From a virus (lineage: Duplodnaviria > Caudoviricetes): a stretch of DNA of 64,000 bases. This document shows positions 26,795 through 36,004 of the stretch, piece by piece; the first letter of the stretch is position 1; each line of letters begins with the position of its first letter. The notes beneath the pieces were generated by a model, which was not told the DNA's origin, ran no database searches, and worked only from the letters and a program-made list of their open reading frames with translations. The position numbers and the translations under genes are program-made. Where the stretch lies: the IMG/VR virus record IMGVR_UViG_3300029305_001452, positions 64,001 to 128,000 of that record; one strand, given 5' to 3'.

Positions 26795-27823
26795 ATGAAG
26801 TATTTTAGTAATGAAATCGTGTTTAGAGGACATCCCGATAAGGTTTGTGATCAGATTAGTGCGGCAATTCTAGCAGAATGTGTAAAGCAAGATCGAAACA
26901 CTAGAGCAGGTATTGAAGTAGCTGGTGGCAAGGGTAAAATCTTTGTCACAGGAGAAGTAACCACTAAGGCTAAGTTTAATACAGAAGAGATTGTAAAGAA
27001 AGTGCTTCGTGATGTTGGATACAGTGACAACTATGAGGTCATTGATAATATTGGCAAGCAGTCCGCAGATATTGCTCTTGGTGTTGATGTTGGTGGTGCC
27101 GGTGACCAGGGCATGATGTTCGGCTATGCTTGTAATGATACTCCTCAGATGCTACCTACAGCAATGGTAATTCTACAGGAGTTTGCAAAGTTCTATGATA
27201 AGCTATGCCATAAGGATAAGAGATTCCTACCCGATGGTAAAGCACAGATTACTGGTCTTTATGATAACAGTTTTAAGCTTGTAAAGATTAAGGATTTCAC
27301 AATTTCTTATCAGAACACTGAAGAAGATAGAGATTATACCGACGCCATCCTAGAGGGCGCTGCAAGATTTATTTGTATTTCTAATGGTGTTACTGATATT
27401 GATAGATTCCTTATCAACCCTACTGGCAAGTTCCTAATTGGTGGCTTTGATGGCGATGCTGGTCTAACTGGCAGAAAGATTGTAGTTGATGCCTATCAGT
27501 CTTTCGCCAATGTTGGTGGTGGTTGTCAGAATGGCAAGGATGCCACTAAGGTTGATTTTTCTGCCTCTCATATGGCACGTAAGATTGCGTGTGAATATCT
27601 AAAGAAGCACGATTTAAAGTGGTGTGAGGTGCAGCTATCTTATGCAATTGGTGTAGCAGAGCCTCTTGCAATTTATATTGATAGTAATATTGGTAACATC
27701 GTTCCTGATGAATCTCTGTATCCTAGATGTACACCTAAGAATATTATTGACGAACTTCATCTACTAGATATTGATTATGAAAAGTTGGCAATGTTTGGTC
27801 ATTATGTGGAAGCAGAGGTGTAA
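26795..27823 (+). CDS. metK: S-adenosylmethionine synthetase
   Basis: GHPDKVCDQIS, GAGDQG, GLTGRKIVVD. Confidence 0.95.
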   Translation: MKYFSNEIVFRGHPDKVCDQISAAILAECVKQDRNTRAGIEVAGGKGKIFVTGEVTTKAKFNTEEIVKKVLRDVGYSDNYEVIDNIGKQSADIALGVDVGGAGDQGMMFGYACNDTPQMLPTAMVILQEFAKFYDKLCHKDKRFLPDGKAQITGLYDNSFKLVKIKDFTISYQNTEEDRDYTDAILEGAARFICISNGVTDIDRFLINPTGKFLIGGFDGDAGLTGRKIVVDAYQSFANVGGGCQNGKDATKVDFSASHMARKIACEYLKKHDLKWCEVQLSYAIGVAEPLAIYIDSNIGNIVPDESLYPRCTPKNIIDELHLLDIDYEKLAMFGHYVEAEV

Positions 27824-27825
27824 TT

Positions 27826-28491
27826 ATGCCAAAGATGCTTGATTTATTTTGTGGAACTAAATCTATGGCAAAAGCTTTTGCAAGAGCTGGGTGGGAAACA
27901 TATACAGTAGACTGGAGTGAAGAATTTGAACCAACATTGTGTTGTGATGTCAACACTCTAACAGTTGATAAGATTATTGAGCTTTGTGGCGGAGTCCCCG
28001 ACTTCGTCCACATGAGCCCAGATTGTACATCTTATTCTGTTGCCGCAATTTCTCGTCATAGAAAACAAAACAAAGAAACTGGTGAGCTTGAAGCTATTTC
28101 TAATTATGCTAAATTTTGCGACAGTACCAATTCGTATATCATTGATTTAGTTGTCAATCAGTTAAAACCCACTTTCTATACAATTGAAAATCCTCGTTCT
28201 GCAATGAGGAAAATGTTCTTTGTTAGAGAGCTTCCTAGATATACAACTACATATTGCCAATGGGGAGACACACGAATGAAGCCTACTGACATCTGGACGA
28301 ATCTTCCTAATCCTAATTTTCCTTGTTGTAAAAATGGTGATCCTTGCCACGAGAAAGCTCCTCGTGGTAGTAGAACTGGCACACAAGGAATTAAGGGGGC
28401 AAAGGATAGATCTCGTATCCCAGATAAGTTGTGTGAATATATTGTGAAGCTATGTGAAAGTGGACTAAGCAACATGGACGGTGATAATTGA
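27826..28491 (+). CDS. small C5-MTase-like methyltransferase
   Basis: LDLFCGT, SPDCTSYS, IENP. Confidence 0.7.
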   Translation: MPKMLDLFCGTKSMAKAFARAGWETYTVDWSEEFEPTLCCDVNTLTVDKIIELCGGVPDFVHMSPDCTSYSVAAISRHRKQNKETGELEAISNYAKFCDSTNSYIIDLVVNQLKPTFYTIENPRSAMRKMFFVRELPRYTTTYCQWGDTRMKPTDIWTNLPNPNFPCCKNGDPCHEKAPRGSRTGTQGIKGAKDRSRIPDKLCEYIVKLCESGLSNMDGDN

Positions 28492-29567
28492 TGATTTATC
28501 TAGACCATGCGGCTACAACTCCAATATGTGAAGTTGCGAAAGAAGTTATAAGAGAACATCTTGATGATTTTGGAAATCCAAGCTCCGGACACGAACTTGG
28601 TAGGCAAGCAAGAGTGTTAATTGAAGATGCAAGAGAGCGAATTGCTAGATGTATTAATGCAGAGCCTAATGAAATATATTTTACTAGTGGTGGATCTGAA
28701 GCTAATACTTGGGCATTAAATCAATTTGGTACAATTGCCACAGAACTTGAACATCATTCTATTAATGCTGCACGATATATGCCTGTTAATCCAAGCGGTA
28801 TTGTAAATGTAGAAGCATATAAAAATATGACATATTGGATAGGTGATGCAGTATCTTGTATGTATGTCAATAACGAACTTGGAACAATTCAGCCCATTAA
28901 AGACGTTGCTGAAATATCTCACGATAAAAAGAAGTGGTTTCATACTGACGCAGTACAGGCAGTAGGCCATATTCCTATTGATGTAAAAGATATTAATTGC
29001 GATATGCTTTCTGCGTCTGGGCATAAATTTGGAGCGCCTAAGGGTGTTGGGTTTCTTTATATAAAAAATGATTATCCAGACCTTGATCCTTTAATTTATG
29101 GCGGCAAACAAGAACAAGGTATACGTGGCGGCACAGAAAATGTACTTGGCATTATCTCTATGGCGGCAGCACTTGAAGATGCCGTGGAACATATGGAAGA
29201 GCACAACGCCCATATTAAGCATCTAAGAGATAAAATGTTAGATAAACTACTTCAAATTCCCGGTTCGCACCTTAATGGTTCATTAGAAAGCCGTGTCTCT
29301 AGTAATATAAACATTCGATTTTCTGGGGTTTCTGGAGCAAGATTAGTTACATTGTGTAGTTTGTATGGTATTTATATTTCCTCTGGATCAGCATGTAATG
29401 AGGGTGTTTCTGAGCCAAGTCATGCATTAAAAGCTATTGGTCTAACAGACGAAGAAGCGTTGAGTAGTATTCGTATTACCATAGGACATGAAAATACAGA
29501 AGAAGAAATTGACCAAGCAGCAAATATTATTACAAAGTTAGTTGAAAGGATGCGTAATGAAGATTAA
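28488..29567 (+). CDS. iscS: cysteine desulfurase
   Basis: YLDHAATT, FTSGGSEAN, HTDAVQ, SGHKFG, SSGSAC. Confidence 0.93.
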   Translation: MMIYLDHAATTPICEVAKEVIREHLDDFGNPSSGHELGRQARVLIEDARERIARCINAEPNEIYFTSGGSEANTWALNQFGTIATELEHHSINAARYMPVNPSGIVNVEAYKNMTYWIGDAVSCMYVNNELGTIQPIKDVAEISHDKKKWFHTDAVQAVGHIPIDVKDINCDMLSASGHKFGAPKGVGFLYIKNDYPDLDPLIYGGKQEQGIRGGTENVLGIISMAAALEDAVEHMEEHNAHIKHLRDKMLDKLLQIPGSHLNGSLESRVSSNINIRFSGVSGARLVTLCSLYGIYISSGSACNEGVSEPSHALKAIGLTDEEALSSIRITIGHENTEEEIDQAANIITKLVERMRNED

Positions 29568-30156
29568 TTATAAGACCAGTATTTTTATTATTGTGGTCGT
29601 TGCATTAATTATTACTATTGCCTGTGCAAGATATTTAGCAACAGAAAACAATAGAATTAATAACGAACTTATAACAGCACAAAATGAATTAACCATTACA
29701 AAAGAAGAATTAATTTCAACGCAAGAAAGTTTGGCAGAAGAAATTAAAATATCTACTAATCTAAATAAGCTTATTGAAAATACAAATATAGAACTTGAAA
29801 GTTTAAACACGACAATTGGACATCTAAAGAACGAAGAATATGAATTTGTATATATGGGTGATTTTAAATACACATATTATTGTGATGAGAGATATCCTCA
29901 TATTTGTGGATATGGTGTTGGTTTAACTGCAAGTGGCAAACCCACAGAAGTTGGTTGGACAGTAGCAGCGGACACTTCGGTTCTTCCTATGGGTTCAATT
30001 ATTTATGTTGAGGGTTTAGGTTTTAGAGAAGTTATGGACCGTGGTGGTGGAGTAAATGGCAATCACATTGATATTCTGATGACAACCCATAATGAATGTT
30101 TTCAGCAAACTTTAATTAATGGTGGAATTTGGGTTTTAGTTCAGAAAGGGTCTTGA
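29542..30156 (+). CDS. membrane-anchored coiled-coil protein with a 3D domain
   Basis: TM, coiled coil, TASG..VAAD..DRGG..HIDI. Confidence 0.8.
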   Translation: MKGCVMKINYKTSIFIIVVVALIITIACARYLATENNRINNELITAQNELTITKEELISTQESLAEEIKISTNLNKLIENTNIELESLNTTIGHLKNEEYEFVYMGDFKYTYYCDERYPHICGYGVGLTASGKPTEVGWTVAADTSVLPMGSIIYVEGLGFREVMDRGGGVNGNHIDILMTTHNECFQQTLINGGIWVLVQKGS

Positions 30157-30181
30157 CAATACAAAATTAATGTGGTATAAT
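30153..30181 (+). promoter_or_regulatory. sigmaA promoter with the ACAAAATTAAT motif in the spacer
   Basis: TTGACA-at-ACAAAATTAAT-gtgg-TATAAT. Confidence 0.8.
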
Positions 30182-30245: not shown

Positions 30246-30449
30246 GTGGTGTATATTATGATTAAAGTGGAAAATGAGTGCGTAGATTGTGGATTGCCGT
30301 GCCTATATTCATCTTGTCCATATTGGGCTGTTAAAAGATTTTATTGCGACGAATGTCATGACGAGGCAAAACTTTATTGGTATGATAATGAACAGTTGTG
30401 CTTAGATTGTATTGAGAAAAGATTAGAAAAGGTTGAGTGTGATGACTGA
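30246..30449 (+). CDS. small Cys-rich protein
   Basis: ECVDCGLPC..C..CDEC..CLDC. Confidence 0.6.
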   Translation: MVYIMIKVENECVDCGLPCLYSSCPYWAVKRFYCDECHDEAKLYWYDNEQLCLDCIEKRLEKVECDD

Positions 30450-31022: not shown

Positions 31023-31604
31023 ATGATTCAAATTAGAAGCAGTGTATTTGAAACCAACTCTAGTTCTATGCATAGTATTGCAATCCCTAGAAATTGCAAG
31101 GCGGTTAGTAGTGTGCATTTTAGCATTGGTGAGTTTGGTTGGGAGTGGGATGAAGTTGATGCTGCGAATTATTTGTATACTGCAATTTGCATAAATTCTG
31201 AAAGTGAATCCGAAGTAAAAGAAAAGATTGAAAAGTTGGAAAATATTTTGAATAATCATGGTATTTCCTGTAGCTTTGGACGAATTGAAAATCATGTTTG
31301 GCATGATGATTATGACAATACAGATTATTTCTGTCTTGATAATGGATATATTGACCATGGTTATGAGTTGAAAGAATTTGTTGACGAGCTTTTCAATGAT
31401 GAAGATAAGCTTGTAAGATTTGTTAGTGGTGGTCTTGTGTTTACCGGCAATGACAATTCCGATATGGAAGATTGGTGTTATATCAGAAGAAATCATGAAT
31501 ATTTAGATAAATATGATTGGCGGACTAAGACAAGTACTCAGTTTAAGAATCCGTATTATATGAGTAATCACGCAGATTATGAATGGTATGACAAGGGTAA
31601 CTAA
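31023..31604 (+). CDS. FETNSSS-motif protein 1
   Basis: N-terminus MIQIRSSVFETNSSSMHS. Confidence 0.7.
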   Translation: MIQIRSSVFETNSSSMHSIAIPRNCKAVSSVHFSIGEFGWEWDEVDAANYLYTAICINSESESEVKEKIEKLENILNNHGISCSFGRIENHVWHDDYDNTDYFCLDNGYIDHGYELKEFVDELFNDEDKLVRFVSGGLVFTGNDNSDMEDWCYIRRNHEYLDKYDWRTKTSTQFKNPYYMSNHADYEWYDKGN

Positions 31605-31616
31605 GGAGGCAAGATT

Positions 31617-31994
31617 ATGAAGCAGATTAGACGTGGAGTTTTTGAAACAAATAGCAGCAGCACACATTCTCTTACAATGATGATGAAGAATGATTATGAG
31701 AGATGGCATAATGAAAAGCTTTATCTGTATGAAGGTGGTTATGGTTGGGAATTTAGTAAGCCTATTAAAAATTCTCTTTATACAAAGGAAGAAGTTCTTA
31801 AATTTGCAAAGAATAATAGATATTGGCATGATTATGTAGAAGATGAATATAAAGAATATGAAATGCTGAGAGATATGGGTTTCATTGCTTGGGATGACGA
31901 GGGTAGTGAGTACCTTGAATGTTTCTATAAAGAGTTTACAACTCCTTCTGGTGAAACGATTGTTGCCTTTGGCGAGTATGGTTATGATGGTTAA
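31617..31994 (+). CDS. FETNSSS-motif protein 2
   Basis: N-terminus MKQIRRGVFETNSSSTHS. Confidence 0.7.
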   Translation: MKQIRRGVFETNSSSTHSLTMMMKNDYERWHNEKLYLYEGGYGWEFSKPIKNSLYTKEEVLKFAKNNRYWHDYVEDEYKEYEMLRDMGFIAWDDEGSEYLECFYKEFTTPSGETIVAFGEYGYDG

Positions 31995-32003
31995 GGAGAT
32001 TAT

Positions 32004-32522
32004 ATGATTCAAATTCGTAATAATGTATTTGAGACAAATAGTAGTAGTACTCATTCACTTTCTATGACAAACGAACATATTAGCGATACAGAATTGAATG
32101 ACCTGGCATTTGAAAACACCTACATTATCAAGCCATTTAAATCTGATGAGGTTGACGACATTATGGAATTACATAGTGTTAAGGACAAACTAAGATATTT
32201 TCTTACATTATACTATCAATCTTGGGACGATACACCAGGTTCGTGCAAGAACGAATTTATGAAGCTGCTTAAAAAGATTTTTCCTAATACAATATTTAGT
32301 TTAGAGATTGGACACCAATATATTTTTGAAGATGGAGAATATTTTTTTGACAGCTACTTTGACAAAGCAGAATGCACTAAGCTAATGGACGAACATATAC
32401 TCAAAAAGTTTATACTCTATGGAACAATTAATTTTGGAGATAGAGATAGAGAAGAATATTATGACAAAGTAAACCATATTCGATACAATAAAGACCTGTG
32501 GAGTGTTGATTGGTCTGGCTGA
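32004..32522 (+). CDS. FETNSSS-motif protein 3
   Basis: N-terminus MIQIRNNVFETNSSSTHS. Confidence 0.7.
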   Translation: MIQIRNNVFETNSSSTHSLSMTNEHISDTELNDLAFENTYIIKPFKSDEVDDIMELHSVKDKLRYFLTLYYQSWDDTPGSCKNEFMKLLKKIFPNTIFSLEIGHQYIFEDGEYFFDSYFDKAECTKLMDEHILKKFILYGTINFGDRDREEYYDKVNHIRYNKDLWSVDWSG

Positions 32523-32540
32523 TTAAAAAGGAGATTTAAT

Positions 32541-33431
32541 ATGAATATTCTTGGTGAATATAAAAACGGTAACTATAATGTCCGTATTTATGAAGATGGC
32601 ACAAAAGTAAGATTTAACGATCTTGACAACTTTAATCCTACATTTGCAGAAAACTGTGATGTTAAAATTACCGACAAGTGTGATGGTGGATGTCCTTTCT
32701 GTTACGAGGGATGTACTCCCAATGGCAGACACGGTGATATTTTGAATCCTAAGTTCCTAGGCACTCTGCATCCTTATACAGAGCTTGCTATTAATGGCAA
32801 TGACTTGTCTCATCCTGACTTGGGTGCTTTTATGATTAAAATGAAGGAGAAGAGGGTCATTTTGAATATGACTGTTAACCAGATTCATTTTGAAAAGCAT
32901 TTTGATTATATTAGGAGTTTGGTGCAGGATGGTTACATTTATGGTCTTGGTGTGTCGCTGAAAGAGCCTACTGATGAGTTTATTAAAATGATTAAGCAGT
33001 TTCCCAATGCAGTGATTCATGTGATTAACGGCGTTGTATCCGTACATGACTTGGCTCGTCTTGCAAGTCACAATCTTAAGGTTCTTATTCTTGGTTACAA
33101 GAACCTTCGCCGTGGAGAAAGTTACTATGAGCAGAATGATGAGATTGTGACCGCTTTGCAGGAAGACTTGGACGCATTTTTGTTCCCAGAAATCATTAAC
33201 AATGGTTGGTTTAAGGTTGTAAGCTTTGACAATCTTGCAATCAAGCAGCTTCATGTGCAGAAGCATCTGCCAGAAGAGCAGTGGGAAGAATTCTATATGG
33301 GTGATGATGGTAATTATACTTTCTATATTGATATGGTAGATGGAACTTTTGGTAAGAATTCTTTAGCTACCAAAAGATATCCTATTATGGATAATATTGA
33401 CGATATGTTTAACAAAATTAAAGGAGAATGA
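32541..33431 (+). CDS. radical SAM protein
   Basis: CxxxCxxC (CDGGCPFC). Confidence 0.85.
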   Translation: MNILGEYKNGNYNVRIYEDGTKVRFNDLDNFNPTFAENCDVKITDKCDGGCPFCYEGCTPNGRHGDILNPKFLGTLHPYTELAINGNDLSHPDLGAFMIKMKEKRVILNMTVNQIHFEKHFDYIRSLVQDGYIYGLGVSLKEPTDEFIKMIKQFPNAVIHVINGVVSVHDLARLASHNLKVLILGYKNLRRGESYYEQNDEIVTALQEDLDAFLFPEIINNGWFKVVSFDNLAIKQLHVQKHLPEEQWEEFYMGDDGNYTFYIDMVDGTFGKNSLATKRYPIMDNIDDMFNKIKGE

Positions 33432-33433
33432 CA

Positions 33434-33598
33434 ATGAGTCAGCAGGATTATTTTGAACAGAGCTTGTGTCGTAAGTGCTTTATTAAGCATTGCAAACCCA
33501 CGAAGAAAGAAATTAAGAAGATGGTTATGAGTGAAGAACAATATGAATGTGATTGCTGTCACAAGACAGACTATGTTGTAGAGTATTTGGAGGATTAA
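33434..33598 (+). CDS. small Zn-finger protein (54 aa, not in the ORF track)
   Basis: AAGGAG RBS; CRKC...CDCC. Confidence 0.5.
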   Translation: MSQQDYFEQSLCRKCFIKHCKPTKKEIKKMVMSEEQYECDCCHKTDYVVEYLED

Positions 33599-35533: not shown

Positions 35534-36004
35534 TTGATTATGGGTACTAACTTTTATCTTATGACTAGAAATAAATCTATGGCACAAAAATATGCGCCTT
35601 ATTCTTATAGTCTTACAGACGAGCCGTATTTTGGATATGAAATCCATATTGCAAAAACCAGTTGTGGGTGGTTGCCTCTTTTCCAAGGTCATAAAGACGG
35701 TATTAATTCCGTCCGTGAATACAAGGCTGCATATGAAACTGGTGAATTTGATATCGTAGACGAATACGGCAATTCTTATAATTGGGAAGAATTCACAGAA
35801 AGAGTGTTAAAATTTAATGGTGGGGTTCGTGGAGTGGAGCCGCTTAAAAAGATTGAAGTAGACACAAGTTCTCAGTTTTATGACCATAGACTACCAGAAT
35901 ACATGCCGATTAGTCATTTTGATTATAAATATGATTATTATTATGTTAATGATTATTTTGCAGATGAAGATGGTTATGAATTTGACAAGAGGGAGTTTTC
36001 ATAA
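35534..36004 (+). CDS. hypothetical phage protein
   Basis: MGTNFY..HIAKTSCGW pattern; coupled to the RNA ligase. Confidence 0.6.
   Translation: MIMGTNFYLMTRNKSMAQKYAPYSYSLTDEPYFGYEIHIAKTSCGWLPLFQGHKDGINSVREYKAAYETGEFDIVDEYGNSYNWEEFTERVLKFNGGVRGVEPLKKIEVDTSSQFYDHRLPEYMPISHFDYKYDYYYVNDYFADEDGYEFDKREFS

Follow-up and report, generated by a model that had tools for sequence, protein, structure and literature searches.

The window analyzed here, 64,000 nucleotides (nt) of a Caudoviricetes virus (positions 64001–128000 of the 139,972-bp IMG/VR record IMGVR_UViG_3300029305_001452), carries a copy of a widespread phage module with two components, a compact radical S-adenosylmethionine (SAM) enzyme and folded, acidic proteins that share a short N-terminal tag. 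This module is most likely an undescribed protein-modification system. A first-pass annotation, made from the letters alone, had pointed to three adjacent proteins of 193, 125 and 172 amino acids (aa) whose first ~18 residues are nearly identical, and the coordinates, lengths and N-termini of these open reading frames (ORFs) were as it described. The module comprises the following features, given with the basis for each:

31023–31604, + strand: ORF1, tagged protein of 193 aa, 'KGN-end' type (phrog_28997), acidic with an isoelectric point (pI) of 4.6; ORF call, profile match and AlphaFold2 (AF2) model.
31023–31076, + strand: N-terminal tag of ORF1, residues 1–18; sequence comparison.
31617–31994, + strand: ORF2, tagged protein of 125 aa, 'FGxYGYD-end' type; ORF call and comparison.
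31617–31670, + strand: N-terminal tag of ORF2, residues 1–18; sequence comparison.
32004–32522, + strand: ORF3, tagged protein of 172 aa, 'WSG-end' type, remote paralogue of ORF1; ORF call and hhalign.
32004–32057, + strand: N-terminal tag of ORF3, residues 1–18; sequence comparison.
32541–33431, + strand: compact radical SAM enzyme of 296 aa (phrog_16999), with no auxiliary-cluster cysteines; profile match and model.
32547–32615, + strand: three-stranded beta element at the enzyme N-terminus, residues 3–25, a candidate tag-docking surface; model and conservation.
32679–32702, + strand: CX3CX2C motif (C47, C51, C54) for the radical SAM [4Fe-4S] cluster; sole invariant cysteines.

ORF1, ORF2 and ORF3 lie in tandem and in the same frame, each with its own Shine-Dalgarno sequence, and begin with MIQIRSSVFETNSSSMHS, MKQIRRGVFETNSSSTHS and MIQIRNNVFETNSSSTHS, respectively. 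The 18-residue consensus of the three tags is M-[IK]-Q-I-R-x-x-V-F-E-T-N-S-S-S-[MT]-H-S, and the only three copies of this motif in the full record are those that open these neighboring genes. As also noted in the first-pass annotation, a CxxxCxxC radical SAM gene (C47-x3-C51-x2-C54) follows, starting 18 nt past the end of ORF3, and after it comes a small Cys-rich ORF (56 aa, 33428–33598) that overlaps the enzyme stop by 4 nt. With one weak match in the ~237 loci fetched for comparison, this small ORF was rejected as a third component.

Conservation of the tag, which we also refer to as the tail, acts on the protein. The three consecutive Ser codons are TCT-AGT-TCT in ORF1, AGC-AGC-AGC in ORF2 and AGT-AGT-AGT in ORF3, synonymous differences are found throughout the three tags, and among 353 distinct tag DNAs from related loci each of the three Ser residues is encoded by both the AGY and the TCN class of codon. 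We therefore give next to no credence to the idea that the shared N-termini are an artefact of recent tandem duplication, of gene conversion or of a DNA or RNA element conserved where the genes begin: the genes are indeed in tandem and in the same frame, but synonymous differences and the use of both codon classes refute such an origin, the bodies have diverged past BLAST detection, and the tag is kept across distant phage lineages. Within 212 tagged proteins of ~24 body clusters, R(-4) and H(+8) are conserved at 100%, neither being required by the search pattern, and the F and T of the tag are conserved at 96% each. In the AF2 model of ORF1 the tail is flexible, with a mean predicted local distance difference test score (pLDDT) of 58 over residues 1–10 and no secondary structure before residue 15. 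Two loci contain broken tag genes (L017:7282–7345 and L003:5620–5700), one with TAA at codon 3 (ATG AAA TAA CAA ATT AGA…) and the other frameshifted between R-R-G-V and F-E-T-N; they may represent pseudogenes or errors of assembly.

The co-occurrence of leader and enzyme, proposed as a check when the locus was first described, holds in both directions. Starting from the enzyme, a tag gene was found within ~1 kb in 87 of 89 viral loci, the two exceptions having almost no flanking sequence, and a tag gene was also present in 72 of 80 enzyme loci on bacterial contigs and contigs of metagenome-assembled genomes (including three variant tags recovered with a tag profile). The tag genes, present in one to six copies, mostly lie directly upstream of the enzyme gene (-10 to -25 nt) or overlap it downstream. 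Starting from the tag, a DNA pattern retrieved 64 stretches. True N-terminal tags were present in 62, and 47 of these 62 carried the enzyme in the same stretch; the remainder were mostly at stretch ends or on contigs with the enzyme elsewhere, and three fragments (31–59% complete) showed no enzyme. Additionally, when 50,697 GenBank phage records were searched, queries with ORF1, the enzyme and a 24-residue tag each matched the same 24 genomes, namely 15 Lak megaphages, eight Microcystis phages and one cyanophage. In Ma-LMM01 the pair is gp130/gp128. In Lak-A1 five tag genes in tandem come after the enzyme. Beyond the tag genes, gene neighborhoods are wholly different from phage to phage. The suggestion that the partners are interchangeable is borne out to the extent that a single enzyme has from one to six tagged partners, with ~24 bodies distinct by BLAST overall. 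On two Christensenellaceae contigs (L222:5992–6879 and L212) an enzyme homologue of ~44% identity stands alone among genes for ATP-grasp-like, alpha/beta hydrolase, BirA-like and membrane proteins; this may be a domesticated or orphaned copy.

The GenBank phage search also returned a natural fusion, a layout not found in the ~237 fetched loci. Salmonella phage Arash gp146c (L238:2991–4421, OQ632216.1) is a single protein of 476 aa that joins a variant tag, an ORF1-like body (residues 3–139, probability 95%, E 2e-8, including G-Y-I-D-H and G-G-N-D-N) and the enzyme (residues 170–451, probability 99.5%, E 8e-23). The enzyme part has weak matches to pVip (E 1e-12) that remain below full-length coverage, and the public annotation of this protein as a 'methyltransferase' is misleading. 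Arash is a cultured phage, grown on a laboratory strain of Salmonella. Taken together, the two-way co-occurrence, the identical set of 24 GenBank genomes and the Arash fusion leave little doubt that this radical SAM clade and the tag genes work as a single functional unit, both linked and physically associated. In this respect the original proposal of a radical SAM enzyme with tag-bearing partners stands. Its formylglycine-type version lacks the features that define such maturation: the tag F-E-T-N-S-S-S-x-H-S contains no (C/S)xPxR, with no P or R in register, and the enzyme has no auxiliary-cluster cysteines.

More distant relatives retain parts of the same arrangement. In Thermus phage phiYS40, gp161 is a member of the enzyme family (E 4e-22) that has no N-terminal beta element, and directly before it, with a 4-nt overlap, lies gp162 (317 aa; L239:3015–5032 for the pair), whose start, M-R-R-L-K-E-V-R-L-T-S-M-T-N-S-S-S-A-S-M-L-V-I-P, looks like a degenerate tag; the match is weak (E 0.004), and the assignment rests mainly on position and context. 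The C-terminus of gp162 was considered as the enzyme's missing N-terminal element and found no support in hhalign. In Vibrio phage D479, gene 0110 (132 aa, L240:1029–1427) begins with M-K-I-R-N-G-F-V-S-N-S-S-S-S-S, and a distant radical SAM protein of 401 aa (L240:2788–3993) follows 1.4 kb downstream. The cluster loop of this protein is longer and its C-terminal cysteine motifs are still in place; the protein may represent an auxiliary-cluster-bearing relative of the module. The Arash tag, Q-I-R-Y-G-F-A-T-N-S-S-S-S-H-S, has lost E10 and kept N-S-S-S, variant tags at two further loci read N-S-S-I-[ED]-H (L184 and L190), and another reads W-E-S-N-S-S-S (L200). N-S-S is kept in every variant seen, that is, in Arash, phiYS40, D479 and L184/L190. 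From these few variant sequences we tentatively divide the tail into two parts, a putative docking half (residues 3–10) and a putative reactive core (residues 11–17). Changes in the N-S-S-I tags correlate with changes at otherwise conserved enzyme positions, to which we give little weight because shared descent confounds such a comparison.

Behind the common tag, the three bodies had been described as seemingly unrelated, which is accurate at the level of BLAST and does not hold for ORF1 and ORF3 at the level of profiles. By BLAST, the similarity of ORF1 and ORF3 is confined to the tag and ORF1 and ORF2 are alike over ~57 residues. With the tags removed, the ORF1-type and ORF3-type family profiles align over 98 co-linear columns (hhalign, probability 90%, E 1.9e-6), identifying ORF1 and ORF3 as remote full-length paralogues, and three more body clusters relate to the ORF1 type by profile comparison (probability 80–92%). 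The ORF2 type has the tag and a G-x-Y-G-W-E / L-Y-T stretch in common with the ORF1 type and is otherwise distinct; it is the commonest tagged type and in other phages usually lies directly upstream of the enzyme. Overall, 214 unique tagged proteins from the fetched loci, 93–262 aa long and with a pI below 5.5 in 97% of cases, fall into ~24 BLAST-level body clusters. The ORF1 family alone comprises 2,437 clusters at 90% identity (816 at 50%), among which R5, E10, N12, S13, S14, S15, Y50, D111, D144 and N145 are invariant and G39, W40, H112, T141-G142-N143, K191 and N193 nearly so (K191 and N193 at ≥90%). A survey of conservation found no such enzyme-like set of residues in bodies of the ORF2 and ORF3 types. 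The short aromatic or Gly-containing ends noted at first sight are conserved within each type to the last residue, as K-G-N in ORF1, W-S-G in ORF3 and F-G-x-Y-G-Y-D in ORF2, and Gly occurs in the last three residues in 60% of cases compared to 16% in internal windows, in sequences that are related and do not constitute an independent count.

The AF2 model of ORF1 is confident (pLDDT 93.7) and resembles no protein of known structure to which it was compared. A PDB sequence search with the ORF1 family profile gave no match, the lowest E from Foldseek against the PDB was 0.12, and VIA-align against 48,161 PDB chains gave a best Z-score (Z) of 3.0 with no N-terminal nucleophile (Ntn) hydrolase listed. 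In BFVD the model matched one uncharacterised viral family member only, and a search of the ESM Atlas gave 'hypothetical protein' clusters only. By profile, ORF1 matches phrog_28997, annotated as of unknown function, over residues 2–157 (E 1.9e-16), while ORF2 and ORF3 match it over the tag only (E ~2e-4). Since the model has no neighbor in the PDB, its fold cannot be named, which does not in itself prove the fold to be novel. The concern that the three proteins might be full-length paralogues of a known fold therefore applies in part: ORF1 and ORF3 are paralogues, but no known fold was matched.

These structural results also bear on explanations in which the tail acts on its own and the enzyme is a pathway neighbor only. 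The tail would then either process itself, in the manner of Ntn hydrolases, by pyruvoyl formation or through Asn-driven cleavage between N and S, or serve as a capsid-targeting sequence similar to that of T4 internal proteins and be cut after V-F-E. Self-processing would suit the model of ORF1, in which the first core strand begins at S15, much as the new N-terminus starts strand 1 in Ntn hydrolases. T4 internal proteins likewise have only a short N-terminal leader ending in Glu in common; T4-type leaders are removed by the prohead protease, which cleaves after (L/I)-x-E, and V-F-E occupies residues 8–10 of the tag. However, strict co-occurrence, identical distribution over 24 genomes and fusion to the enzyme are left unexplained by any such scheme, including the pyruvoyl formation or autoprocessing that the first-pass annotation had offered. 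In addition, phages whose virions differ greatly (Lak megaphages, Ma-LMM01 and Arash) carry the same tail, where a signal for capsid targeting would be expected to change along with the capsid machinery, Arash loses E10 yet keeps N-S-S-S, and the fold searches listed no Ntn hydrolase. We consider an enzyme-independent tail improbable.

The enzyme is a radical SAM protein. In the window it scores 14.9 bits against the Pfam Radical_SAM model (PF04055; cut-off 29.5), whereas 28 of 36 diverse members of its family match that model, with a best E of 1.1e-10, and the window enzyme itself matches phrog_16999 ('Fe-S oxidoreductase') over residues 32–279 (E 8.3e-38). The family comprises 6,314 clusters at 90% identity, none of the 120 listed having a name beyond 'hypothetical protein'. 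C47, C51 and C54 are the only cysteines invariant in the 36 diverse members, C58 being lost in distant ones; as the only invariant cysteines are thus those of the cluster triad, the enzyme carries no auxiliary cluster. One family member, in a complete 367-kb phage (L157, G003:C1:14713–15645), has C-x13-C-x2-C in place of this motif, with a 13-residue insertion after the first cluster cysteine.

The AF2 model of the enzyme (pLDDT 95.3) consists of an N-terminal element, the barrel and a cysteine-free C-terminal beta-hairpin and helix (residues 260–295). The N-terminal element has strands at residues 3–9, 12–17 and 22–25, and only ~35 residues, with no helix, precede the barrel in the model. It is among the most conserved parts of the enzyme: nine of the 18 positions from Y7 to R24 (Y7, N9, G10, N11, D19, G20, T21, K22 and R24) are conserved at ≥90%. 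A PDB sequence search with the family profile gave no match. By structure, 34 PDB representatives, mostly radical SAM enzymes, align to the model at Z of at least 8. The best are SkfB, with 262 residues aligned at Z 17.6, and SuiB, with 263 at Z 16.3 (Foldseek E 4e-6 to 1e-5); the alignments begin at model residues 3 and 1, respectively, and so include the N-terminal element. They are followed by EpeE (14.8), BlsE (14.6), viperin (14.3), PqqE (14.1), ChlB (13.8), CteB (13.4) and anSME (13.2), and further down by MoaA (12.4) and the pyruvate formate-lyase (PFL)-activating enzyme (10.0). No PqqD-like recognition element was matched in Pfam by the enzyme or its family members, PADLOC returned nothing specific, the window enzyme had no viperin match in PADLOC or NCBIfam, and family members had weak, sub-threshold NCBIfam matches to many radical SAM families, NrdG2 included. 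On the strength of the model, the enzyme appears to be a compact member of the SPASM/twitch structural lineage whose auxiliary clusters were lost or never present.

A further conceivable analogy is with glycyl-radical enzymes and their activating enzymes, in which the enzyme would equip the tail with a radical or redox-active group and its tagged partners would themselves be radical enzymes. One enzyme does serve several folded proteins, it has no auxiliary cluster, as is the case for the PFL-activating enzyme (a structural match at Z 10.0), NrdG2 is among the weak family matches, and Gly is enriched at the C-terminal ends. What the proteins share, however, is an N-terminal tail in which no Gly is invariant across the 212 proteins; the RVxG[FWY] glycine loop is absent from all three window proteins, no glycyl-radical-enzyme barrel is present, the ORF1 model having no PDB neighbor, a stable radical on a flexible Ser-rich tail is chemically unlikely, and the module is present in a phage of oxygenic Microcystis. 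We regard this analogy as highly improbable.

Instead, we favor a reading in which the enzyme docks the tail and carries out radical chemistry on its N-S-S core, with a probability of about 0.5. It is the best single reading because a flexible tail is invariant across unrelated bodies, the enzyme's closest structural relatives modify peptides, and the N-terminal element of the enzyme is as invariant as the tail. Building on the anatomy of tag and enzyme, their linkage, the fusion and the relationships between folds, all described above, we infer the following course. The x-Q-I-R-x-x-V-F-E half of the tail would dock on the enzyme, probably by adding a strand to its invariant N-terminal beta element, and would thereby set the T-N-S-S-S(-x-H) core beside SAM and the [4Fe-4S] cluster. 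The 5'-deoxyadenosyl radical would then take a hydrogen from the N-S-S core, giving a covalent change common to all partners, whose different bodies would go on to perform different jobs. In the ORF1 type, the modified tail may serve as a protein-derived catalytic group, as suggested by the enzyme-like set of invariant polar residues in these bodies. By analogy with known enzymes, the product formed without auxiliary clusters could arise through epimerisation, elimination to a dehydro-residue, or oxidation with return of the electron to the radical SAM cluster, each of which is doubtful when taken singly; DesII, viperin and BlsE are precedents for elimination or oxidation chemistry without auxiliary clusters. 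A bolder proposal, which we think unlikely, is that the enzyme would turn a residue of the N-S-S core into a catalytic group, such as a Ser-derived aldehyde or dehydro-residue, without the help of auxiliary clusters, and that the tagged proteins would form a new class of phage enzymes activated after translation, whose fold has not been seen before and which have diversified into many specificities for host takeover or counter-defense.

Several observations weigh against tail modification. Auxiliary clusters, used by SkfB, SuiB, anSME and most peptide maturases, are absent from the enzyme. Its helix-free N-terminal element of ~35 residues is not a canonical RRE (recognition element of peptides made on the ribosome and modified after translation, or RiPPs), which is an N-terminal winged helix-turn-helix of ~85 residues with three strands and three helices. 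The small-molecule enzymes viperin (Z 14.3), BlsE (14.6) and MoaA (12.4) are nearly as close in structure as the peptide-modifying ones, and the lone enzyme homologues of L212 and L222 have no tag gene within 6 kb and lie in a bacterial chromosomal context. Moreover, since bodies of the ORF1 type have conserved polar residues of their own, N-S-S-S-x-H could be part of their own active site, and a fusion of enzyme and 'substrate' suits an association of subunits at least equally well.

In the main alternative, the tagged proteins might be interchangeable subunits or adaptors of the enzyme, with the tail acting, unmodified, as a docking strand or as part of a composite active site. The substrate would then be a nucleotide, an RNA, a protein of the host or a small molecule that the body binds. 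The Arash fusion would then be classic Rosetta-stone evidence for a complex, although it is compatible with modification and subunit association alike; the conserved D111, H112, D144, N145, K191, N193 and Y50 of ORF1-type bodies resemble those of ligand-binding or catalytic proteins; radical SAM enzymes acting on small molecules (BlsE, viperin and MoaA) are structurally close; and the module in the window sits among nucleotide and RNA-repair genes. Nevertheless, the complete difference of neighborhoods beyond the tag genes means that no third conserved component or pathway is visible, bodies of the ORF2 and ORF3 types are devoid of the enzyme-like residue set, and the tail is far more conserved than the bodies and identical on different folds, as would be expected of a common reaction site and not of a docking strand alone. 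We therefore hold an unmodified tail to be possible and, on balance, rather unlikely.

If the tail is modified as we propose, the module would work, by analogy, like the leader-guided maturases SkfB and SuiB or like the protein maturase anSME, yet it belongs with neither. SkfB/SkfA and SuiB/SuiA (radical SAM RiPP maturases; PDB 6EFN and 5V1Q/5V1T) are the closest structures to the enzyme model and similarly pair one radical SAM enzyme with gene-adjacent precursors that have a conserved N-terminal leader. Unlike them, our enzyme has neither auxiliary-cluster cysteines nor a helix-containing RRE and is only 12% identical; its partners are folded proteins of 93–262 aa (ORF1 with a confident model) and not short peptides, and so are not RiPP precursors; the candidate reaction site is the conserved leader and not a variable C-terminal core; and the module is phage-encoded, with up to six paralogous partners. 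In the case of anSME/AtsB and the sulfatases (anSME matching at Z 13.2), a Ser or Cys in a short, conserved, near-N-terminal motif of folded clients likewise becomes a protein-derived catalytic residue, but (C/S)xPxR and the two auxiliary clusters of anSME have no counterpart in our module, and its clients do not adopt the alkaline-phosphatase fold, there being no PDB neighbor for the ORF1 model. Viperin, BlsE and DesII are compact radical SAM enzymes without auxiliary clusters, as is ours (Z 14.3 for viperin and 14.6 for BlsE); they act on nucleotide or sugar substrates and, unlike the module, have no protein partner with a conserved tag. For the layout of Arash gp146c, in which an enzyme is fused to its own substrate segment, borosins of the OphMA type are a precedent; they use SAM-dependent N-methyltransferases and not radical SAM enzymes, and their substrate is a C-terminal core peptide. 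We know of no relation in sequence or fold between borosins and gp146c.

No Pfam, NCBIfam or PADLOC family covers the module, and literature searches on the motif and on phage radical SAM topics found nothing relevant and no paper on the module. It is nonetheless very common, being carried by thousands of phages that include gut and rumen phages, Lak megaphages, cyanophages and a Salmonella phage. Should the tail prove to be modified, the module would represent radical SAM protein maturation on folded proteins with neither auxiliary clusters nor a canonical recognition domain, and a tag of ~18 residues that steers radical chemistry onto arbitrary bodies could serve as a tool. The fusion in a cultured Salmonella phage, together with the Ma-LMM01 and phiYS40 pairs, opens these proposals to direct experiment.

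Upstream of the module in the window are genes for two C5 DNA methylases, MetK, a class-V aminotransferase, a 3D-domain protein and a dCMP-deaminase-like protein. The phage's own metK and iscS-like genes, as previously remarked, are thus present, at 26795–27823 and 28488–29567, the latter encoding the class-V aminotransferase, which is cysteine-desulfurase-like. Downstream lie a gene for an HD-domain protein and then RNA-repair-type genes. The HD-domain gene was considered as a core member and set aside because it is near the enzyme in only eight loci. Between the phosphoesterase and ligase-like genes is a 156-aa ORF (35534–36004) with no Pfam or PHROGs match. One further feature precedes the module:

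30153–30181, + strand: sigma-70-like promoter candidate, TTGACA-17-TATAAT with TG (extended); consensus match only.

This is the sole 12/12 match to a sigma-70-type consensus between 29500 and 35600, and, judging from its sequence and position, it may drive a gene run that includes the module. It lies ahead of a second small Cys-rich ORF (67 aa, 30246–30449), which stands on the other flank of the module from the 56-aa ORF; both contain CxxC pairs.

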